A stretch of 64,000 nt of DNA, taken from Perna viridis (taxonomy: Eukaryota). The notes under the pieces are model-generated. The model ran no database searches. It saw only the letters and a list, made by a program, of their open reading frames with translations, and was not told the DNA's origin. A program made the position numbers and the translations under genes. Shown one piece after another: positions 8,841 to 49,837 of this stretch (position 1 is the first letter of the stretch; every line of letters begins with the position of its first letter). Location: positions 1,550,001 through 1,614,000 of the forward strand of contig CM074511.1 of the NCBI GenBank assembly GCA_037379345.1, given 5' to 3'.

Positions 8841-9239
8841 CTGCAATCAACAAAAACCTTTTGCAACTATTCACAACTACATACTTTATATTTAACAGAT
8901 GCTACAACACACAAAATTATTTAAGAAATAATCACAACCTTATACAACCCATTTTTAAAGGTCATACACATGTATAAAACCTGGACATACTTTGCATACA
9001 CATGCAAGATAAAATTTACATGTGCAAGATAAAAGTACCAGTATTTTTTTGTATTTTCAGCTGCATTGTTTGATTAAAGACTATACAGTTATATTGACTT
9101 ATAATAGCTTTACTTATTATTAAAAATTTCAGCTCAACTGTCCAATTAGACAAATAAAAATTATGTAAGATGAATGTATACATGTACATCCAGAAATGAC
9201 AATATACATGTACATCCAAAGGACTGGTATAATACTTAC

Positions 9240-10358
9240 TTCAGCACCTTTAGTGCAAGGTTCTCTAGTTACAATATGATCAGGTCCAGTGTTACCAATA
9301 CCTTCAAAACAATTCTTTATATTCTTTGTAAACATTTCACTGATTTTTTTCAATGGATAAAAACACACAGCAGTATCATTCAAAGCCTCGGTACTTCCTG
9401 CCTTACCAATAGAAAATGTAGCAAATAAAACATCATTCTTTGTTGTTATAAATAAAGCTTCAGCCAAAAGTTTTCCTGGTTTAGCCACTCGTGCTGCCTG
9501 TAGTAAATTATACTTAGCTCCATTAAATTCACAAACGAGTTCAACTTCAGTATAAGAGTAAAATTTTTTATCATCTTGGCACACTCGTATTAATTTTGTT
9601 ATGTATTTCTCTGACTGAGTACTAGCTCTCTGAACTGTAGCCATGTAGCTAAATTTTCCAGATGAGAAACCATAAATATAATTCACATAAAACGACCATC
9701 GTTGCATTGCATCTATAACTTTTGAAGTACTGTGAAAAATATCCTTTTTTGAAATCATAAAAGTATTTAATTTACGACTAGAAAATGCAGGGATATCTTC
9801 TCTGACTAATCGAATTCCAGTAGTAGTGTAAGTGGTTCCAACATACATGACATTAGGAGGCGGTATTTCATTTTCAAATGAAGGACCGGGAGCAATAAAG
9901 GCCACTGTAGTTGCTGTCGCATTATTAGCCACAACATACTGATACTTAGAGTCATCATCATCAAACTTTGTTATATCAGATAATAAGTATTTTGTACAAG
10001 AACCTTGAAATAAACTTGAACAAGCTATAAGCCTTTTTCCTACATAGTCAATCATAAGAGCTTTGCTGTAACTTTTCATTGGCTTTTTGGAGTCACAGAA
10101 ACTTAACTCAATGGGTAAACAATCTTGACTATCATCTTTTGGACCTGTGGCTATTGCCTGGTCGACAGTAAAATTTTCAGATAATTTTATAATCTTATTT
10201 ACTCCTGCAACAAATATATATCCTGTAGTTTCATCTTTCACCATATGTCTGAATCCATCCTCAGGTTTTGGGTTAGAGTAAGTGAGCTTTATAAAGTGAG
10301 ATTCCATCAACACCACCCCAAACAGATGTAGTATTACCAGTTCTATAACACAATTCAT
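9240..10358 (-). CDS. Plexin-A-like gene, coding exon 1 (signal peptide plus most of the Sema domain)
   Basis: ORF carries plexin Sema motifs (VVANNATATTVAFIAPGP, MYVGTTYT, VNYIYGFSSGKFSY, YITKLIRVCQDDKKFYSYTEVELVC, YNLLQAA..KPG..LA..L...NDVLFATFS) resembling invertebrate Plexin A. Acceptor ttttcag lies 15 nt before the ATG (exon starts 10373). Phase-0 donor GAA|GTAAGT at 9240/9239. 373 codons. Confidence 0.93.
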
Positions 10359-12848
10359 CTTGTTCTTTCAAGTCTGAAAAGATAAATATAATATGTCAAC
10401 AATAATTAGAAGAGTTTTTTAAATAGTATGACATCTAAGAGAATATTTTTCTCATCAATGACTAGGGTTTATTTAAATCCTTCAAAGGTTGTTTTCTGTC
10501 TGTGTTCTGGCTACAGCACCATAGAGCTTGAGATTGTCTATTTTTTATTCATCAGTATATGCAAGTGTAAGTTACGAAAGCTCCTGATGTCATCAAACTT
10601 ATGCTCAGTACTTCAATTCCTATGGTAACATTTCGAAAAATCTTAATACATTAATAACTACATGTAGTATTTTTAATGGCTACAAATATTGTACACAAGG
10701 TTACTCAATAGAAAACCTTCAGTAATGCATGCCACAGTATACATGTATTTGATAAAATCTTTAACTACAAGTAAATGTATAAACGCACAAATTCATGTTT
10801 TAAAAATGTGCAGTTACAAAAAATGTACACTGTAATGCATACACTTACAATGATGTATGTTTGAAATGTTATTCAATATGAAGTTTTGCTTTTTTTGCAA
10901 ATATAATAACCTACAAATGTATACATATCATTTGGCATAAACTATAACATTTATGTGTACTACAAAAAAATTGCTAAATATCATGCACAATTGACATAAT
11001 GAAAATGAAAGGAATTACAAGTAATAAACTTAATTTTATACATGTACATTAATGTACTAAATAATGTAAACATGTACATGTACATACATTTCTACAAATA
11101 CCTTTACATGTAGGTTTATTCCTTACCATCTGACAACTTTCAAATTCACTTACAAGTAGTTCTATGGTGTGTGAAATATACTAACTCCCCTACCTTTATA
11201 CATGTACGTCCTATAATTCATATATTTACATTGAGGATTTCACAAGGCTATCAATATAACATCAATAACTAAATCAGTATAGCCAGGAAAGTAAATCCCA
11301 AAAGTATGCAAACATAATCTTCTAAATATAATCCAGCAACTTTCTTCAGGTTGTTATTGAGTATATAAATTACAGGTATATTGTGATATAACTTGTTATT
11401 ACACCTGTAAATCACAGGTATATATACAATCAGGTGAAAGTATCACCTGTGTCACCTACTTAAAGTAAATGATGACCACTATCATATTTTGACAGAACTG
11501 TTTGAAGAACACATGATTTATTAGAGTTGACATTTTTCTTACTATTATATTGCCACAAAAATACTAGCCAATCAAACAATGAAATGCTCTTACAAAAGAA
11601 GTATTTATAGATCACCATCCCTGATAATGAAGATTTTTCAAAAGAATAGAGATGTTTGGCAAAATATTATTAGTTTGAATAAGAAATGGTTGAGAATTAT
11701 TCATTACCACTAGATGGACAACACACTACATGTAATTTATCTTAACTTTTGTACATACATGTAGATGTATAACAGGTAGATTTATAAACATCTACTTAAA
11801 AACAGCTTTTACATTAATAACTGGCAAGATTTAGTTTATAAAAAGGTTAATAAATTCTGAAAGTCAACTGACACCTACACTTTTGTCATTTCTTGACTGA
11901 TAACACAATAATAATATCTAATTACCAACTAACATTATATCACAGGTTCATTAATCTATCTTGGGAATATACAATGTACACTGAACCCAGATGGTATATA
12001 TTGTCTGTGAATTGTTCAAATTTTTCTTTTAATTTTTTTCATGGATGGTACACCATGTACATGTAGACAAACTGTCATTTTTTAGTCTTTTAAGTCTGTA
12101 CTTGAAAACAACACCAAACGAAAAAATACAATGCCATTTTTAAATACTGTTTTTGAGACAGAAATGACTTCTGAGAATTGAATCACACTCCATAAACAAT
12201 GTGATTCCCAATACATACACATATACTTGTAAGCTGTACAGTATTATCTATTTAAATTAAAAGTACTCACTAGTATATGCATACTTAAAATTTGCCTAAA
12301 CTTAAATGGAGTTCAAATTCATATCTGCTTGAAAACATTTACAAAACAAAAATTGCTTGCAACTAAAATGTTTGACAAGGGTTTAGGTTAAAAAAAAACT
12401 TTGCATAGTTGATAGAATGGACATAATCAGAGAGGTTAAGTTTGTTCGATGACAGCTTGCTTTACAACAGTAACAATAGAAATTTGATATAACAGTGGGA
12501 TTACAAAATTTATGGGCAGTAAAGTGTGTCATCATTTTCTAAAATATCTCCTCATTTTGTTATAAAATAAATCCCGGAAAACGCCCTACCTGACATTAAA
12601 AGATAAACTCCTACACATTAAGAATAAATCCAAAATTTATAACTGAATTATTCATTCATGAGCACATTCTTAAGTATGGTAATAAATAACTTTAATCCAC
12701 TTTAAACTACCGGATGCCCTCTCCACCAATTTTTTTTGTCAATGAACTTCTTCTGCACAACTTTGTCAAGTTTATTTTTCATATTGTAACAACTTGAAAA
12801 ACAAATATATCGGGTGATATGTAATTAATCATTCCATGGAAAACTTAC

Positions 12849-19156: not shown

Positions 19157-19305
19157 TTGCTCATTTGCTTTTGTTACTTTGTATGTATGATTTCAGTTAC
19201 TTAATGTTCTTTGTTGTGTATGTCTGTTTTCCATGTCTGGTCTTTGTTCCTGGATTACATTCTTTTGATTACCGCTATAACCTTGGTTCCCTTGATTGCT
19301 CTTTA
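19157..19305 (+). mobile_element. Short 3'-terminal fragment of a Penelope-like (Naiad-type) element
   Basis: Near-identical reverse complement of 35738-35886, which is the 3' end of the RT relic at 35.7-36.45 kb. Confidence 0.78.
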
Positions 19306-20660
19306 TAATTGGAAAGTTAAAATACTCACATTTTTTTCATAAAGTTTTGATATCAAACATCCTGTATCATTTTACATTTGAATGTATTCCTGTAAGTTAA
19401 GGTAGTTATGAAGAAGGTGCGTCAATTTTCTGTTTAATTTCAAGTTCTTTTTGGTGGATCAGATATAAGTAAACTTTAATTTCTGTTAAGAGTAATAACA
19501 AAATCTCTGATAAACTCTAGGCAATTGTTGATTCTTTTTTTTTTCTGCAGCAGCACTGTTAATATACAGATTGGACAAGAATGGTGCCTTATTGGTTTCT
19601 ATAGCGTTTGACCTCCAAACCTACCAACAATGTTGTCAACCAAAAATTCCAACATCTTAATAACATAAAAAAACAGAGTAACCCTTGTTTGAATGAGTGT
19701 CCTTTTTTCACAAAATAAGCCTTTTCTCTAGCTAATACTGGACAAGCATATCTTCTACTGTTTTGTAAAGAAACATTGGTGAACATAATCATGCTGAACT
19801 GACTTATCATGTGGAAATAGTGTATAATATAGAAAAATCAGAAGTTTTTATACTATGTGTAGTACAAAAGGTAAAACTACCAGAAGAGAGACAGGTCGTT
19901 CGAATTTTTGAGAAGCAAGATTTGATTCATGCCGCTTGTAGAGTAGGCTTTATCACAGCAACTCTTGAGTTCATCCTTCACTGCTGTCAGTAGTGTAGTA
20001 AGGAGTTTGGGGAAGAGATTAGTTGTGCACTTGGTAGACCAAGCAATATATCTCTGTCTGTAATGACCTTTGTGTTGAAAAGTGTAGGTGTCCAATGAAA
20101 AGAAGAAAGAGCCATATTTTCATCACTTAAGGAATATCAAAGGAATTAAAACTGACACATGATTGGTAATTTTGTCTTCCTTTAGTATGTGTATTGTGCT
20201 GAGTGATTTAAAATATGTTTGATAGCCGAGTGTATTGTTAAGACAATATAGGGTATTTTGTACAGAAGTGCAGTAGTGAGGAGCTTTGTCTGCTGGCACA
20301 AAAACAAACTTGTCATGAAGATATGTTTAAATTTTTTAACCTGGGGATTGTAAAAAGATGAAGATTCTTGATTTTATTGACATTCTGAGGTGCTAAATTC
20401 CAGTGAGAAAAAAATGACTTATAGGACATTACTCAATTAGAAAGTGTCTCAGTTTTAGTTAATTTTGTTGCATATTCTTCACATGTGTCAATCAATGAAG
20501 TTTAGTTGATATGATAGGCTTTTTATAATAATTCCTTGCAATGAGTATTTTCAACTTTATTTATGTCACTAGTGATAACATGTCCAATAGGATTGAATTA
20601 CAAAGTGGTGTAGACACAATCAGGTAAAACACTATGGTTACTGGTACAAGCGATATATAG
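19306..20660 (-). mobile_element. Decayed Naiad-like Penelope retroelement (linker plus RT)
   Basis: Translated remnants: PDCVY...NPIGHVITSD (decayed CxC linker), LHDKFVFVPADKA, HKGHYRQRYIA.STKCTT, SGMNQILLLKNS, APFLSNLY, KELEIK, SKLYEK..FNFPI. Confidence 0.75.
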
Positions 20661-23600
20661 TGGGTTTATTTGTTATTGTTTTGGTTTTTTTTTTTTTTTT
20701 TTTTTTGAAAAGGGGGAGGGTTGATGTAAAAGGGATGACTTGAAAACATTTAAAAAGGTGTTCTGTGAGGGAAGCTTCTTTTCATTATGGATCTGTATTT
20801 TAGATATTCATACAGTATTTATTGACAATATATTTCAAAAGGGTGACGCATTATGGCTTATTAACTGATGGTACAGAAATGGGGTTCCTTTTTTACTTTA
20901 GGAAAAATGACAATACGAAATGAGAAGTCATCATGTTTGTTGTAAAGTTGGTCGTGAGATTTCCTAGTCCTAGTGCCTGTAGTGTCCTTTATCTCAAGTT
21001 CTTGCGATTACTGATCTGCCCTATGAAAAATTCAACTGAACCCAGGTTAAAAAATAAAACTTCTTCTAGAAGTTTTTGCCCTTGGAAGAAAAAATGTCCA
21101 TTTTCACAGACTTTGCCCTGTATTTCTGAGTTAAAAGTGTTTTATTATACCAATCATGGTCCGACAGTAACGTAACATTTATGATTCAATCCACTCATCC
21201 ATGTACATGTATATTATACACACAATGAGAATTGGTGTACAGTTATATTATAATAGCTAGTGTAAGAACCAGATAGGAAAATAAGTTACAATTCCTAAAT
21301 ATTGTTTTTCCTTATATTCATAAAATGAATTATGAGTTTTAGGTGAGGGATTCGAGCCTTCTGGGGTCTGTTTATTTAATTGATCTCACTCTCATTCATT
21401 TGCAATTACAAGCTATCACACAACATTTTTGAAATCAATGTAGGCTTATTGTACACAACTGCTTGTTAAGACTTGAGTGTTTTTAAATGCATTTTACATT
21501 AATTCTTAAAGAATTGAAAAAACTTGACATTTTTCTTTCAGAGAATAGATTAATTTAAAAAATGAGGAAACATTGAAATAAAAGCTAACAAATGGTTTGG
21601 GACATGCACACATACTGTGCTGTTTTAACAGGTAAAAAATAGTATATTGTAGAAAAGAACTAATTGCATTTTTTTTAATGTAAGAAATCTTACTGATTTT
21701 TATCAAAATTTTATTTCAGCTTTACTTCATGCATGTAAGATTAGAACCAAGAAGTTATATATATTTTAATACAGTATGTTGATTACAGTTACATTTAAAA
21801 ACAATGCATAATACTTTTGATCCTAAAAAGTTTTGAGTTATCCCCCCTTAACCATTTAAGACCATAATAAAAAGTAGAAAAAAATTATGGCTTTAAAATA
21901 TAAACCCATCTTAATCTTGAATTGTAAAAAAACAAAATTCAAATTGTTTATGCTGCAAATAATAACTTGTTCTTCATTTAATGATGGTAAAGATTTTGAT
22001 ATAATAAACAAGGCTACCAGAGTTATATCCCCTGGTATAAGAATTACACACTAATTGATTGTTGTTATTTTTTTTTTCAATTGAATAGTCTCCCTTTCAC
22101 CACACATCTTTCCAAATCACTCGATAAGTAAATGCAGAATATTTCACTTTGCAAGCAGGGGTTATCACTTTAAGTTAACAAACAGTTCTAGTTTCATGAA
22201 ATTCTTGGGAATATTTTATATGTTGAATTTAACTATAAACTTGAATTTCTTTTCACAAGTGCTCGTTGGTCCATTTTCAACATAAATTAAACTCTAAAGG
22301 TTCTTTGACATGTACTATAATCTACCACTGTATATTGGATTATAATAGAGAAATGTCTAATTGCAAATTTTAAAAGATCTTTGAACATTCATTCTGTGTC
22401 AGAAACTTGTGTGGGTCAAACATGTAGTAAGCAGGCAGATCCTGTGATATGGTTTGGGCAGCACAGAGTACATTATATCCCACCAGTTTTATTGTTTCAT
22501 TACAATGTTAAACTCATTATGGTGTCAGAAAAAAACAGGGATCTTTCTGTATCAATAGTGGATGACTCAGAATAAATGTTCAAAGATCTCTGATGAATCA
22601 GCCAAGTTATAAATGGACCAAAGAGTTATTTCCCTTTATTTCAAGGTGAAATAATGCTATGCAATTTATTTCATTGTTGCCATTTCAGTACATTAATGTG
22701 GTATCTAGTTGATGAAAATTATTAGAAAACACACACAGTCTCCCATGGATACACTTTTATTAGAAACTGTATCAAGCTTGGCAATACTTGTTCTGTAAAG
22801 GGTTTGACCTCTGTGGTCATATATAGCTATGCAGGGTATCAAACTTCCCCAAGCTGAAATTTAGGTTGTCCTTTGGAAAATACTTGTAGAAAAATAAATT
22901 AAATTTGGTTGTCCCCTGGGCAAGTATGATTTAATTTTTACTTGACTGAATGGTATTTTCACTTGTTCCAGGCAATAGGACAACCTTTAACATCATAGTC
23001 TGCTATGTAAAGCATTAGATTAACTTTAGTAATTACGGTATATTATTGACTGAAACAGTACATTTTTTTTGCCATACTCTGAGAAGCTTCTCAAGTTCTA
23101 TATTTAAATCACAAAACAAATTTTGTAAGAAACCAGAACAAATAGTAAATCATAACCTTGAATTAAAATAAATCAAGCTAAGAGATTGTATTTTAACATA
23201 ATCATTGCTGCATACAGTAGAAAATGATTATAGGAAACAATTACCCATCACTTATTGCAGACCTCTTTCTCTACTATTACACATCACAATTTTTTGATAG
23301 GATAAATAAAGACTCTTCCAAACAAGATTTAGTTGAAAAATTTATTAACACCTTTAGATATTTGGATATTTGGACAATACCTTGGCTCTAAATAATGATG
23401 ACTTCAGTATTTATACTAAAGATATACATCATGTAGAGCTGTCAATAATGGTTAACTTAACACTAAAATTTACAATAAAAGGGATGATTTTTCTTCCCTA
23501 TTGTCAACTATCCTTTACCATCATATGTTGTTTAAATATCACAATAAGTTCAGTTTGCTTGTATTTATAACAATGTTTCGGATTTTAATGAAAGGAATCT

Positions 23601-23882
23601 TTATCTAACCAAGGAACTACTACATCAAGGTTTTCGATATCACAAGCTTGTAAAAACATTCACAAAATTTTTCAACCAATACAAGGAAATCATTCTTGAA
23701 TACAGATGTACTTGTAAATGATTTATATGTGCTGGTATCTCTTACCCTTTGATTAATGTAATATTCTGCCCAAAACAAAGACATCTTGACACTCATCTAA
23801 TAAGTTAACTAAACCATTGAATAGAAATTTGTTGAATTCGTAAGAGATATAGTTATGATATTGATGTCAAATTGTTAAGGAT

Positions 23883-25358
23883 TTGCTCACCTGGTCAATA
23901 GGCCAGGTGAGCTATTGCCATCACTATGTGTTCTTGGTCTGTTGTCATCATCCGATAACTTTTTCAAACATCTCCTCTAAAACTACTTGATAGAATGTGA
24001 CAAAACTATGCATGTATATTCCTTGTGTGAGATTTTTTATCTGCTTAAAAACATTGCCCCCATTTCTAAAAATAGACCATAGGGGTCAAATTGCATACAA
24101 TTGGAAATAACTTGGTAAGGGTTGCATTTAGGTAGAACCTGTCTGGGGAAAATTGTTCAGCCTGATGGGATGGATCTATGCCAAAATATTTAGAAAGTTC
24201 AGTTGAATGATTAATTTATGGATCCTGAAATTGATTTTTTTCCTTAATTTTACATTTTCAACTTTGAGAATTTTCTCCTCTGAAAGTACTTGGTGGATTG
24301 AAACAAACCTTAGTCTGAATGTTATTTAGAACATCTTTAACAATCTGTAGGTGGACATTTTTGATTTTGTGAAAATATGGCCCCCGTTACTAAATATAGA
24401 CCATAGGGGTCAAATTACAGTATTTTGCACATAACTCAAAAGAAGTAAAATTGTTCAGCATGATGGGTTGGACCCATGCCAAAATTTTCAGAAAGTCCCA
24501 TTGATGGAAGAATTAGTTGAGTCCTGTAATGGATTTTTTTTACTGAATTTTACATTTCCATCTTTGAAAAACTTCTCCTCTGAAATAAGTGGATGAATTG
24601 AAACAAAACTTAGCATAAATGTTCCGTAGAATATCATTTACAATCTGGATAGGGATTTTTTTTCTTGCGAAAAAAACATGGCCATTATTACTAAAAATAG
24701 AAATAGGAGTCAAATTGTAGAATTTTGCATTTAACTCAAAAAAACAACTGGATTTGGCTTAAATCTGACAAGGAGTAAAATTGTTCAGTGTGATAAGTTG
24801 GACTTGTGCTGAAATTTTCAGAAAGATCCATTGACAGATGAATGAGTTTTGGGTCATGAAATGGATTTTTTTCCAAAGTTTTTGTATTCCCAACTTAGAA
24901 AATCATCTCCAAAACTACTGGATGGAATGTAACCAAACTTGGCATGATTGTACCTTACAATATCTTTAACATTCTATGTGTGTGGATTTTTGCTGGTTAA
25001 AACCATGGCCAATGTTACTATAAATTGACCATAGGGGTCAAATTGAAGATTTATGAAAGTGACTCCTAAACAAATGAGTTGAGCTTAATTCTGACAGGGT
25101 AAAATTGATCTGTATGGTGAGACCAACCTATTCCAAAATTTTCATTAAGATTTGTTGACCAATGTTAGTCATTGCTCACGAAGAGTCAAAAAATGACTAT
25201 GAGAGGTTTATTTTTTAATATGAAAACCAGGTAAATAACTCTATTGATTAAATGATTCTTGTGACAATAGTACAGTAAGGTCAAGAGTCAAGCTTTAGAA
25301 TGCTAAAAAAACTACTTTTGACCAGATGAGCAGTTCAGGCTCTCTAGAGCCTCTAGTT
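23883..25358 (+). mobile_element. Helentron-associated interspersed element (HINE/DINE-1-like)
   Basis: 5' subTIR gctcacctgg with a nearby inverted copy ccaggtgagc. About four internal ~300-bp repeats (starts ~23971, 24273, 24572, 24904). 3' subTIR ccagatgagc and terminal hairpin aggctct-ct-agagcct. T-rich flanks. Confidence 0.82.
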
Positions 25359-25449
25359 TGGTATTAACATTGATTCATTCATAGGGTCTTTACATAGAAG
25401 TTCAAATACTATACCAGTATTTAATGGCAGTTTTTGGCATGACATGATT

Positions 25450-25540
25450 TGTGTCCTTATTGTATGACTTATGATGTACCATGGTTCTCAACCCCACATG
25501 GGAAGAATTGGTGTTGATTTTACATATGATGGAGATATAA
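25450..25540 (+). promoter_or_regulatory. SECIS-like (type II) hairpin in the retroelement 3' UTR
   Basis: ATGAT (25471-75); helix gtacca..gttct / agaat-tggtgt; unpaired AA (25490-91); apical ccc/ggg mini-stem; TGAT (25515-18); lower helix tgtatg/catatg. Confidence 0.62.
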
Positions 25541-25759
25541 CTTTTTGTAGGTTTGGTCTGGAGCTGGCATGTCAGTTAACTGCTAGTTTGTCCTTAGTTT
25601 GTATATCTGTAATTTATGTTAGTTTATTTATTTCCATTGTAACAAGGACTCAGACCTTTTTGAACTGATTTTTAGGTGTGTTTAATTGTGTAATTGTGTA
25701 ATATTTTTTTTCCACAGGGGCCAAAATTTAATGGGGGGAAGGTTGTGATCATGCCAAAG

Positions 25760-26040
25760 TACTTTAACCCAGCCCCATTGTTTGCACTTGTCCAGAGTCT
25801 CTGGCTTCTGTATGTCTTGTTTTGTTTTCACCATTAGTTATTTTTTATGTTACTTGAATATATATGGGCAACTCTACCTGTACCTTTGCATAATGTTGTT
25901 ATAGGGCCAGCAGCAGCCTGCACTGTGGTGTGAGGGTTTCTTTGTGGTTCATTGAAGACTAATGGGTGGCCTTGGGCTGACATTTTTATCCCGATGGTGT
26001 TGTTTTCTCTTTGACATATTCACTATACCTATTCTCATTT
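25760..26040 (+). repeat. Dispersed repeat (second copy at ~31595-31855)
   Basis: Shared blocks ttgcac.tgtcc, ctggc..ctgtatgtcttg, catt.aagac..atgggtggccttg.gctgacattt and tctttgaca. Confidence 0.65.
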
Positions 26041-27746
26041 TATATATAAAAAAAATGTTTTGTTATTTCATAGTAATGTAGCAAATAATGTTTTTGTTGC
26101 TTTCCTCTCTCAACTTAGAGACATTTCAGAGATTTCTTTGTCATACACAAGATTTGGAGTCAGACTTGCTGTCTTCTTTTCAGTCACTAGAGAATAGTTA
26201 TCATGAAATTATAGAAAATAATCTCAATATTCCTTAAGTGTTAATTGACCAGATAATGACATTGTATTTTATTTACAGATGGTTGAATGACTATATCATT
26301 CTTGGACCAAAAATCAATATATTGCTCTTGGATGTGAGTAATCTGATGAGTCATAACATACGGAGAAAATAAACCCATGGTGAGTTCTACCATATTTTGT
26401 TCGGTGAGTTTTGTTTCCATAAATTTGTTCTTTTATTTATTTTTCAGTTTATTTCTGCATTTCAAAAAAAAATTTTTTCCCTCCTTGCTCTTCAACTAAA
26501 GATAAAACTTTTCTATTTTTGATAACTTGTATGCTTTCTACTAAATCATCATTTATTATAATGATGGTTTCAGTGCCCATTGCATTTCAAATGCATATTA
26601 TGTAAATTGAAGCAAATTGGTAATTGATATTTTTCATCAGGAATATCAGTGATTTTTGTATTTAGTTAGTCCATTAATGACAGTAAAAGTGACTTGTTAG
26701 TCATATCAGGACATAATCTTTCTTGTTTTATGGACATACAGGATTATTTATCTCAGTAATTGATTTTAGTTATATTATTGACTTAATCTCTGTATTATAT
26801 ACTGTTACATGGGGAGTTAGTGCTAACCATATACGAATGATTTCCCTCAGATTGCAAAAATTGTCCCTTCAATAATGGCCTTAAATTTGTGAATGAAAAA
26901 AAACTGAAATTTAATGACTCATCAGTGTTCTAGGATTCCTATTTTCCGTTACCCGGGGCAAGTGAAATTTGGTTCAGGGAAAGTTAGGTACTTAGTTACA
27001 CTTTCCCGTGGCAAGTTGAAAACTTCATATGCTGTAAGGATTTGTTTTGTTAGGAAAGCAGTCATTGAGTGTGGGAAAGTTGATTTTGTATGGATTTTTC
27101 CTGAGGAGAACCTCAATTTTCTGAAAAAACCTAGAACACTGCTCGTGCTTATTTCAATTGTTCATTGTCCATCCATAAATGGTTTCACTCAATTAATAGG
27201 CTAGGCAGATAATTTTATGTCAATTTTTTTGTAAAAAAAATACTCTTTTGAGACACTAAAACCTGCAAATCTAACAAATGTACATTTTTCAAATCCTTAA
27301 ATTATTGAGATCCTTAAAATGATAGATATCCTTTTATATTCTATCATAAAAATCTGTAGCTATTGTAACTGAATGGAAAAAATATTATCAGTTTTCATGA
27401 CAAAGTTTAGATGCCCTCTTTTAAATATCTGGCACTTTAAAACTGCCAGGAAAAGCTTGCAGGCATGTTATTGTTGTAATGAACAAAAAAATAAGTGTAC
27501 CTTTTTCTGCTCATCTGTTTATGATTTTAATTCTGAAAATTTGTGTGAAATTATGCACTTTTGAGAAACAGCCAACTGGTACAAGTATTGCATATACTTC
27601 TGTACCACCAATCAATATTTCCACAAATTTTCACGCTTTTAATTTGTACTAAATGAGACCAGGTGAATTTAGTATAAAGGACATCATACCCCAATCATAA
27701 CTGTATAGTACAACCTAAAGTGTAGTCTGGAGAAGCCAATAATATT

Positions 27747-28890: not shown

Positions 28891-31800
28891 AATGTAACAA
28901 ATAGTGTACTAAATGTAACATTTTATCATTGAAGTTAAGCTTTTGATATACTATATGTTGATGACGAGTACAAGTATTTGTTACCTAAGTCTCTGAAGTC
29001 AGGGTTGTTATTTCTTCCACCCTCAAGATATTGCATGTGGAGTGACAACCTTGAAACAATGGGTGGTGAAGCAGGGTTAGTGACCCTTGACCTTGATGTA
29101 AAGGGGTATACTTAGCAAGACAACATGTGCAACTTCATGTTCTTGAAGAAAGTTTACATTGAGGCATATCATTGACCAAAATTTTGTTATTATTTAAGGA
29201 AGGCCTTATAAAATTTATTGGAAGGAAAAGAAAAGGAAAAACATAAGAAAAAAAAACAGTTAGGGTTTCAGACTTTACAAAATGATATAAAATGTTTTAG
29301 CATATTGTTTGCAGTGTATTATCAAATGTTCATTGTGTATTATATATATCGATAATTCACATTGTGAAATAAATTCTGTAATTTCACTTCTCCATATTAA
29401 TGTCACAAAATTTAAAGTTTATGTTGCAAATATTAATAATTTATGGAGAAAAACTGGACAATTTATGAACCCTTTCACTAAATCTGGACCTTCTTTTGCC
29501 GTGTGGTCTTATTTTGGTTATAAACTATTTCCGATTAATTATCTTATTATAACATTAAATAAAGTATGATATACAGTTGGGTGACCAGGAAGAATGTGTG
29601 AGGATAATTTTACCGACACGGTCGATATAGTTTCGCTTTTTACCCTTTGACCTTAAAGACGCTTTTCCATGGAAACGCAAGTCACCTGATCGAAATTCTG
29701 TTTCTTGATTGGCCAAATACTGATAATTAAGTGGCATTAAAAAAAATGCATCAGAAATTGAAATTGGGTGCTATGTGTTATTTCCTGAATGAAATGTAGA
29801 AAATTATAAGTAAAAAGAACAAATTTTACCATGTCTGCTATTTTTGTTAAAGAAAGCACTTGTTTTCTTTATATGAGTACATTTATGTGAAATTTCTGAC
29901 ATGTTTTAATATATCATGTTGCAAAGTGTAAAATAGTATTAAAAAGGGATGCTTTAAACACATTTCTTTGTATCTACCATTAGAATTAAGTTTGCATTAA
30001 AATTGATATCAAATTAAAGGTCAAGGTTAGTCTAGAAGGTTCTTTATGTCTGTTCTTGACAGAAGAATCATTGAACTATCCTGTTCTGAACATAAATTAC
30101 TTCACAAGGTTCTGTTTAAACAAGAAAAAAAATCGATAAAGACTGGTTATTCACTAAAAAAAGGATCAGAAAACTTTTTACAACATTAAAGCCATCTGCT
30201 TCTCTTAAAATTTTCCTTTAGGCTAGAAACCAAAAGCTGAAAACTAAACAACAAAGATGATTTTCAATTTCATTATTATACAATAAAATGATGTTTCTTG
30301 CTATGAGTCAATAGATCTTCTATGCATAGCTGCAAATAAATTACCATGAAGCTGCTAATACACATCTTCAGAAAACTCCTTGATCAAAAGTCTCTGGTTC
30401 CCCATTATACTGGTTACTGGTTCTGTGTCTGGTACTGAAATCAGTTTCAGGAAACTGATGTGTCCCTGCAAAAAATTATAGAAATATCTGTTGAAGAGTA
30501 ATGAATTGGTCTGCAGTTTAATTAGATATTCTATTTTCATTTCATTTACATGTATATTTTTCTTACAAGATTAAAATTACATACATTTGCCATTTACTGT
30601 AAGTATAAACAAGTACATTAAATCAAAACATACAGATCGACATCTTTCATAGCATTTCAGTTCTTAAGGTACTTATGGTGTTCAACACTGCCAGTTCTCG
30701 TACATAAGGTGAGAGACTCTCTCAGACTTCTGGCAAAATTCCTTTTATCCTTAGATGTTTCTGGAATCTTACACATTTTATTTATGTTTTAATATTTGGC
30801 CATGTGGACTGAACCATGAAAAATATTCTCTGATTGATATGATTTCAAGTCAAAAGTGTTGGGTTGTGTTCTTTACCAGAACATTCTCATATGATTTATG
30901 CAAGTCAGTGAAATGTCAAATCTATTTTGCCCTTTTTCTTTGTTTTCTTAAATCATTTAAGAATTGTTAGATATACTGGTAAATTAATTCAGTTCCATTA
31001 ATGCTGAATAAACCACAAAGGCAATAATATCATTCCAAAGCACTCAGTGCAAATAAAGTGTTGGCTAAGAGGTAAAAATGGCCATGGGGATGAAATTTTT
31101 GTCCTTTATCTTGGCAGCCCCTTTTACATGGATTGCATCTTAGTTCACTTATGAGTATGTTGACAAGTTTTATAGCTAGAATGAGTTCCTGTAAGATCAG
31201 AGACTTTGATCTGGTTAGTTTGTCAAAATGATGTGTTCTTGAAACTAAAAGAGGACAGTTCCAGTCTTTCTCATTGAAATCAAGTAAGCAAATTCTATCC
31301 CTTAACAGAAGTGTAAAAACCAATACTTTCATATTTGTCCACCCCCAAAATGAAGATTTTTGGACACCACCATCCATGTAGGTGTGTCAAGTTTATGTTT
31401 CCATGAGTAGACTAGCAAAGTCAGTCTTACATGTACGACAGTCAGTTTGTTCCTTTCCTCATCTTTGGAAACTTATCGACCATAGGTAACGTTGGGGATA
31501 CATGCTCTTGGTAAAAATGTCAAAATCAAAACACATAATTACTGATGTGTACAAAGTATGCTCATACATGCTGAAGTAAGACTAGTTTATTAGCTATTAA
31601 TCCTCTCACATTTGTTGCACCTGTCCCACGTCAGGAATTTCTGGCCCCTGTATGTCTTGTTTCACTATCACTTTCAGTCTACTTTATGTTGCTGTAGTAT
31701 ATAGAGCTTGAGGAAATTCACTGTACCTGAATAATGAATGTTGTTTTGGGGCAGCTGGGGTAAGGGGTTCCTCATCATTCATTAAAGACCCATGGGTGGC

Positions 31801-32384
31801 CTTGAGCTGACATTTTTCTTTGTCTTTGACACCATATCCATTCTCCTTATATTTTATTAGCTATGTTATTCTTGTTCTTTTATCATCACTTAACTTCGAC
31901 CCTATCAGCCTGGAATATTATGAAAAAAGTTTCAATCATTCAGTTACCCAGGTTAATTATACCCTGGCTTCATAGAAGCCTGATAGTATTAGGATCACTT
32001 TAATCAGGTCCTTGATATTCAGTAGCCTTTAAATTTACAAATATGTGGCAGAGTATAACTAGAACATCATTCCCAGATATCAACTATACTTACACCTTGA
32101 GATGTTTGATTTGTTGTTTTCAGTTTAATGCATTGTTGTAAAAATCACATCTAAACCTTAGGGTATGTTACTTAACAAAGTGAACTAAACTCTACTCTCT
32201 TAGAGGAATATTATAGAGGTTAAACCAAATGTACTAACTAGTTTATACCAATCCTTCAACAAAGAACTTAAGTGAACAGATGATTTTTGTGTAATAGATA
32301 ACTGTTTTATAAGTTGTGTCTATCAGTTATAAAGTATCACTACTAATCACTATAAGAGAAAGCCAGTTTTTCTTTGTACTGTAT

Positions 32385-35737: not shown

Positions 35738-36450
35738 TTAAGAGTAATCAAGGGAACCAAGGTTATAGCGGTAATCAAAAGAATGTAATCCAGGGACAAA
35801 GACCAGTCATGGAAAATAGACATACACAACAAAGAACACAAAGTAACTAAAATCATACATACAAAGTAACAAAAGCAAATGAGCAACTTGGACCACTAAA
35901 AACTGGGAGCATCCTCTGCTTTTGGGAGGAGACAAACAAGGAAAGGAAAACTATGACCCACTGAATGAATTAGTTTTCATGGTGTAGAAGGATACACCAT
36001 AACGATCCATGAGTTCATGATGATGACCATAAAACTTCTGTAGTAATGACTTCAGCATAACCCTGGTCCAGTAGCCTATATGTTAGAGTTCTAGCGGGAT
36101 ACAAAAAGTCTGTGTAGTTTCAGCAAGCTCTGGCATAATGTATGAGTTGTGATATGAACAGTCCATACGCAGGTGCTGAAGGGATGTTGCCACAGATGAA
36201 AGGAAAGTTGACAATTCTGAATGAAAAGTCATCATGTTTGTCGTAAAGTCTGGTCAATATTTTCCTTTACCATCGATTTCTAGGTGTATGTCAGGATATG
36301 AGGCTGACTTCACAGTGTCTGTAGGATGCGATGTATCAAATCCCCATAATGATTATTGTATAAAGATAATACATCATCTACATAGCAGAAACTGAGATTA
36401 AAGGATCTAGCCAAACGATATTTTTTCTTTCAGATTAGGTCAGCTATAAA
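35738..36450 (-). mobile_element. 5'-truncated Naiad-like Penelope retroelement (RT palm/thumb plus 3' end)
   Basis: LARSFNLSFCYVDDV, SASYPDIHLEIDGKG, LYDKHDDFSFRIVNFPFICGNIPSAPAYGLFISQLIHYARAC and FYGHHHELMDRYGVS, followed by a 3' terminus also found at 19157-19305. Confidence 0.83.
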
Positions 36451-44738: not shown

Positions 44739-44836
44739 TGAAAGATAGATTATTTCACAGGATTTTCTTGGTTACTAACAAAAGATCAAGTTTGTTTCAT
44801 TTATATAAACTATTTTTCTTTGTTTTCTAGATAACC

Positions 44837-45871
44837 ATGATGTTACATCTACTAGTGCTTTGTTTAACTGTTGTCAAAGTGATGTCATTAACTGTAGAAA
44901 AACTATATCGAGATCAGCAGAGTCTCCAGACCTTTGTCATAGATAAACATTCAGGAGAGGTTTTTATTGGAGGACAAAATACTCTAGTCAAATTATCATC
45001 AGATTTACATGTGCTAAAACAAGTTGATACAGGACCAAAGATGGACAGCCCTTTATGTCCACCACCATCATTACCTTGTAATAGGACCAAGAGCCTGGTG
45101 AATAGTGTCACTAAAGGTCTACTCATAGATTACCATAGAAATAATCTTATTGTATGTTCTAATGTGTACCAAGGATCATGTCAACTTCGTAATCCTGTAA
45201 ACATTGAGCAGGTTAAACATGATATTACCAAACCAATTGTAGGACACGATCCGATTCCTTCTGATTTTCTGTTGATAGCTCCAGGACCAGAGAGTAATGC
45301 ACTCTATGTTGGTAGTAAATACCATAATATCAACCCTAATGGTGAATTGAAAGTATTCCGTGATAAGGTTCCTCATTTAGCTAGTCGTAATTTAGATAAC
45401 TTTGAATTAACCTCAAGGAATGTCAGTGATGGAACTAAAATCTCATTGCTGGATTCATATAAAATGGATTTTCATGTTAACTTCTTGTATGGCTTTTCCC
45501 ATGGAAGCTTTGTCTACTTCATTACACTACAGGCTAAATCTCTGGATGATAATACTATGGAAACAAAAATTATTCGTGTTTGTCAAAATGATAAATATTT
45601 CCGTTCATATGTTGAAATTCCACTGCTATGTTACAAGGATAAAAATAAGCCTTATGTCATTGCCAAGGGTGCTAATTTTGAAAAAAGTTCTGGCAAATTG
45701 TATGTTATTTATGAGCAGAGTGACAGGTATATGTCGGTGTCATCTGCTTTCTGTGGATACCAGATGGCTAACATTAGAATGATGTTTGATTCCACTGTGG
45801 AGCAATGTCAGCAAGGTAGTGGTTCTATTGGACCATCACATCTCCATACTAGGGAGCAATGTGCAAAGTCT
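44837..45871 (+). CDS. Divergent plexin gene, coding exon 1 (signal peptide plus most of the Sema domain)
   Basis: Hydrophobic N-terminus. Motifs VFIGGQN.LVKLS, LIVCSNVYQGSC, IAPGP, VNFLYGFSHGSFVYF, KIIRVCQNDKYFRSYVEIPLLC. Acceptor ttttctag 6 nt before the ATG. Phase-0 donor TCT|GTAAGT. 345 codons. Confidence 0.93.
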
Positions 45872-46019
45872 GTAAGTATTCAGTTGTATCCCCTGTTTGT
45901 GGCAGTAACTGTACATAACAGGATTGTAACTTACTTGTCAAGTATATGTTTAAACTGCAATATTGAATGTAGGCAAGGACTTGTATTATGTTAAGTACTT
46001 AAAATTAGGACTATTGAAA

Positions 46020-48911: not shown

Positions 48912-49837
48912 TCTAGTTCACCTGGCCAAAGGCCATGTGAGCTATTGCCATCACTTGGCGTCCATCGTCGTCATCCGTCGTCATCATTAACAATTATACA
49001 AAACTCTTCTCCTCTGCAACTACATGACTAATTTGAACAAACTTGGTATGAATGTTCCTTGGGGTATCCTACATAGAACTGATGTGGGGATATTTGATTC
49101 ATCAAAAAACATGGCCGCTGTTACTAAAAATAGAACATAGGGATCAGACAGTAGTTTTTCACATATATCTCTTAAATCGTTAGGTTTAGCTGAATTCTGA
49201 TGTGGGTAAAAGTGTTCAGCATGATGAGATCTATCTCTGGTCAAATTGTCAAATTTTGGTTTTAATGCATTAAGCCATGTTGGAGTTATTGCCCTTTTTC
49301 AACAATTTTTGCTATTTTTAATGTTATTTCTTTCAAAAATCTTCTCCTCTGACACTACTTGACCAATTGAAACCAAACTTGGTATGAATGTTCCTTGGGG
49401 TATCCTGCATAGAGCTGGCTTGAGGATTTCTGATTCGTCAAAAAAAACATGGCCCCCATTACTAAAAATAGAACATAGGGGTCAGACAGTAGTTTTTCAC
49501 AGATATCACCAAAACCGTTAGGTTTATCCAAATTTTTTTCAATAGCTGAAATGATCCATATTACATTGTATTAGGACTACAAAAGTCTTCAGACTCCTTG
49601 CAAGAGTTATTGCCCTTGAAAGGGAAAAAATACATTTTTTTTAGAATAGTTTTTAGTCAATATCTTGAAAACTATGATAGATTAAAAGAAACTTTCAATT
49701 GTTGAAAAGATGTTGTGATAGTCCTACCAAAGACTTCTTGAGTCAAAATTGTTGGACAACTTCTTGTTTAATTTATTGCCTTTGAAAGGCAAAATTCAAC
49801 AAGATGAGCGATTCAGGTTCCTGGGAGCCTCTTGTTT
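48912..49837 (+). mobile_element. Second HINE, related to the 23.9-kb copy
   Basis: tagttcacctggcc-aaa-ggccatgtgagcta; (CGT/CAT) microsatellite; two ~335-bp internal units; 3' caagatgagcg plus hairpin aggttcc-tg-ggagcct. Confidence 0.82.

Follow-up and report, generated by a model that had tools for sequence, protein, structure and literature searches.

A hairpin near positions 25450-25540 of the 64,000-nt stretch of Perna viridis DNA analysed here (the window) is, with a probability of about 90%, a selenocysteine insertion sequence (SECIS) with which a once-active family of Naiad retroelements read five in-frame UGA codons as selenocysteine (Sec). The anatomy of the family, its TGA counts, the cysteine-motif positions of these TGAs and the tRNA-Sec genes were observed directly in the genome. 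By established Sec biology, host SBP2 and eEFSec would act on the element mRNA: SBP2 would bind the kink-turn core of the hairpin and recruit eEFSec and Sec-tRNA. Recoding of the UGAs would then yield an endonuclease-reverse transcriptase (RT) selenoprotein of ~1000 residues with five Sec, placed at predicted metal-ligand positions. In an older lineage of the family, Sec would have stood at the position termed DKA+8 and Cys at the second position of the CxC motif, and a younger burst would mostly have reversed this. Selenoprotein Naiads as a kind are already published (Craig et al. 2021); new here are a predicted type II SECIS, Sec at CxC, the number of five sites, and a two-way swap of Sec and Cys.

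The region of the hairpin is repetitive. First-look genome searches returned 2853 candidates for the 3' part, 495 for the RT and 47 for the endonuclease; 40 candidates for the hairpin region were scored and were 81-85% identical. The 5' part of the element was recovered by walking 5' through genomic copies. Long copies, represented by 40 endonuclease-bearing loci, have the order endonuclease, CxC, DKA, RT, hairpin and tail, and the hairpin lies downstream on the same strand in 20 of these loci. The frame spans ~1000 codons from an ATG and contains a GIY-YIG endonuclease and the RT. The endonuclease is N-terminal, upstream of the RT, and is accompanied by CX2-5CxxC and CCHH fingers; PADKA was found, and the CxC position reads U-N-U or U-N-C. 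The family model of 3996 columns fits the length (3.4-4.4 kb), frequent 5' truncation and high copy number of Naiads. Pfam left the decayed endonuclease pieces undetected and matched RVT_1 below the cut-off only. As judged by eye against the published sequences, in the part of the source available, the layout is that of the Naiads in Craig et al. (2021; PMC8557442).

No intact copy of this Sec-type family was found in the genome, and the frame was read from column counts. Every copy seen is decayed, most of them being 7-17% off the column majority. A first profile was rebuilt, since ~430 nt in the RT region were collapsed in it and DKA+8 was miscounted. In the rebuilt alignment, 11 of 301 rows were dropped (>25% divergent or <80 nt), and rows that agreed at 95% or more were merged. 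Two family copies on different contigs, L202 and L206, are nearly identical including their flanks, and this likeness suggests a segmental duplication. A younger, Cys-type Naiad family is also resident in the same genome. Its copies are ~95% alike (6036 first-look candidates), carry Cys at CxC and DKA+8, and have a 3' end that attracts many RNA reads. Pieces of other Naiads, chiefly of this younger family, occur in the window at 19157-19303 (+), 19892-20320 (-) and 35739-36423 (-), and loci L063-L090 and L239-L244 are of the same nature. A search with L057:120-620 was rejected, as it found a nested copy of the younger family in place of the Sec-type one.

The copy in the window is composed of two parts, 23230-23882 and 25357-26045, and is ~10-12% diverged (Table 1). 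The placement of the hairpin in the 3' UTR of a Penelope-like element, proposed in an earlier note made from the sequence alone, is thus borne out: the host element is a dead Naiad copy that matches the family profile. An intact relative, P0001, aligned by tblastn to the first part in four pieces with 52-78% identity. In other family copies, 23882 continues directly into 25357, and the sequence between them is therefore a later insertion, placed in a T run. We take this insertion to resemble the non-autonomous Helentron (HINE) repeats of bivalves; related pieces are also present at 48918-49501. The family stop, at 25402-25404, is TAA in 49 of 68 copies and has mutated to TCA in the window copy. 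The window has one more piece of the Sec-type family, a short 3'-end fragment at 31597-31854 (+) that lacks the hairpin.

Table 1. Parts of the Naiad copy in the window
Feature	Positions	Strand	Basis
C-terminal part of Naiad ORF, frameshifted and 5'-truncated; runs from RT motif C region to thumb/C-terminal extension	23230..23882	+	profile, E 1.5e-162
Nested insertion of 1.47 kb; repeats of ~300-324 bp inside it	23883..25356	.	junctions in other copies
ORF end	25357..25404	+	family alignment
3' UTR and tail, with the hairpin inside	25405..26045	+	profile match 25357-26045, E 8.4e-191
Type II SECIS-like hairpin	25448..25541	+	sequence reading and descriptor

The TGA codons of the family are the first line of evidence for Sec. 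Over 970 codon sites in 290 family rows, TGA is the commonest codon at only five, all of them cysteine-motif positions: the second Cys of the CX4CxxC finger (16/26), the first Cys of CCHH (17/29), the Cys before GIY-YIG (16/30) and both CxC positions (27/32 and 14/31). At a sixth site, DKA+8, 13 of 42 copies have TGA and 22 have Cys; one copy, L230, reads TGT in the second alignment and TGA by direct reading, and the count may be 14 versus 21. At the 21 remaining Cys sites, TGA makes up 15 of 871 codons, and the commonest codon is retained in 71% overall. No TAA or TAG majority exists inside the frame, two A-run slips of the model having been stepped over. At three CGA sites TGA reaches 17-22%; these were not accepted as Sec sites but put down to CpG decay, as their CAA counts match. 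The genome holds two tRNA-Sec genes scoring 78.7 bits (cut-off 47). A tandem array of ~50 tRNA-like genes with ~520-bp spacing, just below the tRNA-Sec cut-off, is located at G000:C6:43388203-43414625. The proposal that the family recoded UGA as Sec is accordingly supported by the conserved in-frame TGAs, in the majority at cysteine motifs only, and by the downstream hairpin.

The same TGAs bear on another explanation, namely a non-autonomous lineage with a dead ORF that was moved by another Naiad, in which the TGAs are inherited nonsense and the hairpin is a product of chance. The decay of all copies (7-17% off the column majority in most), the presence of the younger Cys-type family as a possible supplier of RT, and the lack of covariation would agree with it. 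Such a lineage would, however, be predicted to carry TAA and TAG as well, and at non-Cys sites, whereas all five or six sites are TGA at cysteine motifs. These TGAs also match published Sec sites and the W/Cys columns of independent relatives, and TGA and Cys codons exchange in both directions. Inherited nonsense is hence extremely unlikely, and recoding of UGA in an active family is preferred.

The window copy itself contains an in-frame TGA at 23719..23721 (+), which the earlier note had left open as a Sec codon or decay. It was rejected as a Sec codon: the family has GGA (Gly) here in 36 of 68 copies and TGA in 9, no column co-segregates with it, and Cys appears in 0 of 49 relatives. The codon is most likely the result of decay of a Gly codon at a mutable site, which settles the alternative on the side of decay. 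The proportion of TGA (9/68) nevertheless exceeds that at other GGA sites (9/421), an excess only partly accounted for.

The second line of evidence is the hairpin. Direct reading confirmed the geometry claimed for it. Helix I (25448-25466 / 25523-25541) has 17 of 19 positions paired in the window copy and 19 of 19 in the family column majority. Above it are an internal loop of 5+4 nt and the core, with A25471 followed by UGAU (25472-25475) opposite UGAU (25515-25518). Helix II (25476-25489 / 25503-25514, with a 2-nt bulge), an unpaired AA (25490-25491) and a CCC/GGG mini-stem (25492-25502) with a loop of 5 nt complete the structure. The type II features present are thus the UGAN/KGAW core, the preceding A, the AA, helix III and helix I. 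According to SECISaln, helix 2 ranges from 11 to 16 bp and a G/Y pair stands above the core (Chapple et al. 2009; PMC2647825); the hairpin has the G/Y pair, and its helix 2 would fall within this range. In the accessible parts of the literature, the eukaryotic type II SECIS shares with the hairpin helix I, the internal loop, the AUGA/GA core, helix II, the AA, helix III and the G/Y pair (PMC2647825, PMC2761289). The hairpin differs in its 15-nt AUGA-AA spacer with a 2-nt bulge, a form missed by the Rfam SECIS models. This spacer fits only with the bulge, leaving ~11 helix II pairs plus the core, and is longer than in four comparison hairpins (12 nt in two clam Naiads, by eye, and 12-13 nt in two host matches). 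The core-to-AA distance is stressed for SECIS by Latreche et al. (2009; PMC2761289). The lower helix of 19 bp is unusually long.

In other family copies the AUGA lies 60 nt past the ORF stop. The closeness to the RT frame that had been claimed holds for these copies but not for the window, in which the hairpin is 1.6 kb away from the frame because the 1.47-kb insertion splits the element. On its own, the window copy folds no more stably than shuffled sequences (z 0.45 for 25430-25560; z -1.11 for the 98-nt core). The family column-majority hairpin reaches z -4.95, with 0 of 300 shuffles equally stable, and the best of the other 100-nt tiles of the family 3' region has z -1.72.

A SECIS descriptor of our own was used for detection. 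Its first version, with an AUGA-to-AA spacer of 11-14 nt, matched 0 of 66 family copies and missed the hairpin; after this miss, the spacer was loosened to 11-16 nt and the energy cut was eased. The loosened descriptor, for which 0.5 matches per 64-kb strand are expected by chance, found the hairpin as its only + strand match in the window and as its only match on either strand along the ~4-kb family element. It was passed by 15 of 65 family copies, among them 7 of the 34 found through ORF queries, by 1 of 290 control pieces and by one of two host controls. None of 28 3' ends of the Cys-type Naiad family of the same genome passed.

Two further checks of the hairpin were negative. Rfam cmscan, run over 24500-26500, 25430-25560 and 20 family copies, matched no SECIS model, and RNAalifold on 57 neutrally decaying copies gave no consensus pairs, so that compensatory changes were not seen among these copies. 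The single lineage-level change within the hairpin, from A-U to G-U, kept the pairing. A genome search with SECIS_1, in which 129 of 20424 candidates were scored, yielded two sub-cut-off matches (L237 and L238), neither from the Sec-type family; both have canonical geometry and are probably SECIS of host selenoprotein genes. The neutral decay of dead copies and a weak Rfam model explain both negative results, which still count as negatives.

These results also concern the view that UGA recoding was real while the hairpin only mimics a SECIS, for instance as a 3' structure recognised by the RT. The spacer, which exceeds that of the clam and host hairpins by 3 nt, the long lower helix and the missing Rfam match speak for mimicry. 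It is nonetheless very unlikely in view of the UGAU/UGAU core, the AA, the G/Y pair and the probable fit of the helix 2 length, the standing of the hairpin as sole descriptor match on both strands of the element, 60 nt past the stop, and the Cys-type family being without such a hairpin. The reading as the SECIS of the family is therefore kept.

The window copy is inert: its 5' part is missing, its frame is broken and interrupted, and its flanks are silent in the RNA runs examined. The RNA reads of the family stem from diverged copies and lie on both strands, and the endonuclease is thinly covered by them. Takeover of the window hairpin as a SECIS by a host gene was considered, as this copy still passes the descriptor and RNA of the species contains pieces from the 3' part of the family; one such contig, 938 nt long, extends across the hairpin region in the copy examined. 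The flanks, unique on both sides, have a depth near 0 in three RNA runs, though, and, among the joints listed, no GT..AG one crosses the locus. RNA joints give no support to the exon-like stretches near 26130-26380 either, and these were rejected. The nearest long ORFs, >10 kb away, are plexin-like by our own reading; those at 9129-10367 (-) and 44831-45994 (+), which point away from each other, presumably represent first exons with plexin/semaphorin domains. Divergence is 0.105 in the hairpin and 0.106-0.107 in its flanks, the equal decay expected because the copies are dead. Takeover at this locus is thus scarcely credible, and the hairpin is best regarded as a relic of the family SECIS.

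Genome-wide, hairpin copies number 1345 first-look candidates, 40 of which were scored. Applying the 7/34 descriptor rate to these unconfirmed candidates suggests, as a rough figure, a few hundred intact-looking hairpins. A search for exapted hairpins found no outlier among the 30 best-matching loci, which are 4-10% diverged (40 of 1345 candidates scored). The earlier idea that the copies spread SECIS elements through the genome consequently stands for the sequence, at the level of first-look candidates, but not for functional adoption, with none among the 30 best loci.

Selenoprotein Naiads of clams and spiders are on record, as the earlier note stated. The accessible part of Craig et al. (2021; PMC8557442) describes four families: Naiad_Mmer and Naiad_Scon in clams, and Naiad_Sdum and Naiad_Smim in Stegodyphus spiders. 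The comparison with the two clam families covers the first 400 letters of the published proteins and, for the C-terminal halves, the DNA. Within this scope, Naiad_Mmer (Mercenaria mercenaria) and Naiad_Scon (Sinonovacula constricta) resemble the family in their N-terminal GIY-YIG endonuclease, CxC, DKA and RT, and in a SECIS just past the stop. By eye, they also share the UGAs at the first Cys of CCHH, the Cys before GIY-YIG and DKA+8 (the last as in the family's older lineage), and the spacing U-x10-U-x4-C. In contrast to the five UGAs of the family, the clam Naiads have three or four, and both have Cys codons at the second Cys of CX4CxxC and at CxC. Naiad_Sdum has a UGA at the second Cys of its CX2-5CxxC finger, as in the family. 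The spider Naiads, compared through their published descriptions, have UGAs before GIY-YIG and at DKA+8 like the family but, unlike it, none at the CCHH and CxC sites. The SECIS of all four published families are type I, including those of the spiders, whereas the family hairpin is type II and unrelated in sequence to those of the clams. The source was the only report of Sec-Naiads found, subscription journals lying outside the literature search.

The Cys-type Naiads of mussels and oysters (Naiad_Mcor, Mgal, Mphi, Bpla and CGi) have the same clade architecture as the family; in the part of the source seen, they carry Cys at the UGA sites of the family and C-x2-C before the YVG motif, and are not listed as selenoproteins (PMC8557442). 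In a set of 86 endonuclease homologues, two of the endonuclease sites carry Cys in 62 and 64 cases and W in 14 and 11. All three endonuclease sites are W in the two nearest homologues (59% and 55%); we infer that W at these sites would be TGA translated with a table in which UGA is Trp. The 34 RT relatives that are closest reach 90% identity to P0001, and 32 of them start downstream of CxC: 27 after DKA+8 and 5 between CxC and DKA+8, the remaining 2, which are rearranged, starting before. Contig ends may be the reason for the late starts in some cases. W at DKA+8, the first CxC position or endonuclease sites also occurs in the more distant Naiad proteins P0036, P0043, P0046, P0048, P0049, P0052, P0083, P0130, P0132, P0134 and P0139. 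Judging from these protein entries, TGA was probably read as Trp there as well, which would make them further unreported Sec-Naiad families. A metagenome scan for relatives with DNA found nothing.

Older and younger copies of the Sec-type family differ in where Sec is placed. In copies with TGA at DKA+8, the second CxC codon ends in C (4/4); in copies with Cys at DKA+8, it mostly ends in A (11/13). The states at the two positions go together (4/4 vs 1/13; p 0.002), and four further columns are linked to them. They also follow a midpoint-rooted tree built from 29 copies after both codons and the CpG sites had been masked. This tree contains a star-like clade of 22 copies (94% support), in which DKA+8 is Cys in 19 and TGA in 3; those three may represent intermediates or recombinants. 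Among the 7 copies that branch deeper, DKA+8 is TGA in 6, or in 7 with the direct reading of L230. The clams, with U at DKA+8 and C at CxC, agree with these deeper copies. Older copies thus appear to combine U-x-C with Sec at DKA+8 and most younger ones U-x-U with Cys, Cys and Sec having swapped positions.

A wider reading would make Sec-Naiads a single lineage of wide distribution, with Sec moving from one metal-ligand cysteine to another, the U-x-U motif being gained while DKA+8 returned to Cys. In it, the family would have scattered a few hundred hairpins that still look intact and donated one of them to a host gene, forming a new host selenoprotein. This combined reading is unlikely. No evidence for the route from a transposon SECIS to a new host selenoprotein was found at the locus or at the 30 best-matching loci.

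The family adds to the four published ones a case with Sec at CxC, a type II SECIS and an exchange of Sec and Cys in both directions across two waves of copies. The database relatives that are read with W or are shortened suggest that apparent stops conceal many further families of this kind. Swaps between Sec and Cys are normally inferred across species; in this genome both states are preserved among fossil copies. Their presence side by side permits a test of whether the retrotransposase depends on where Sec stands or on how many Sec it has.
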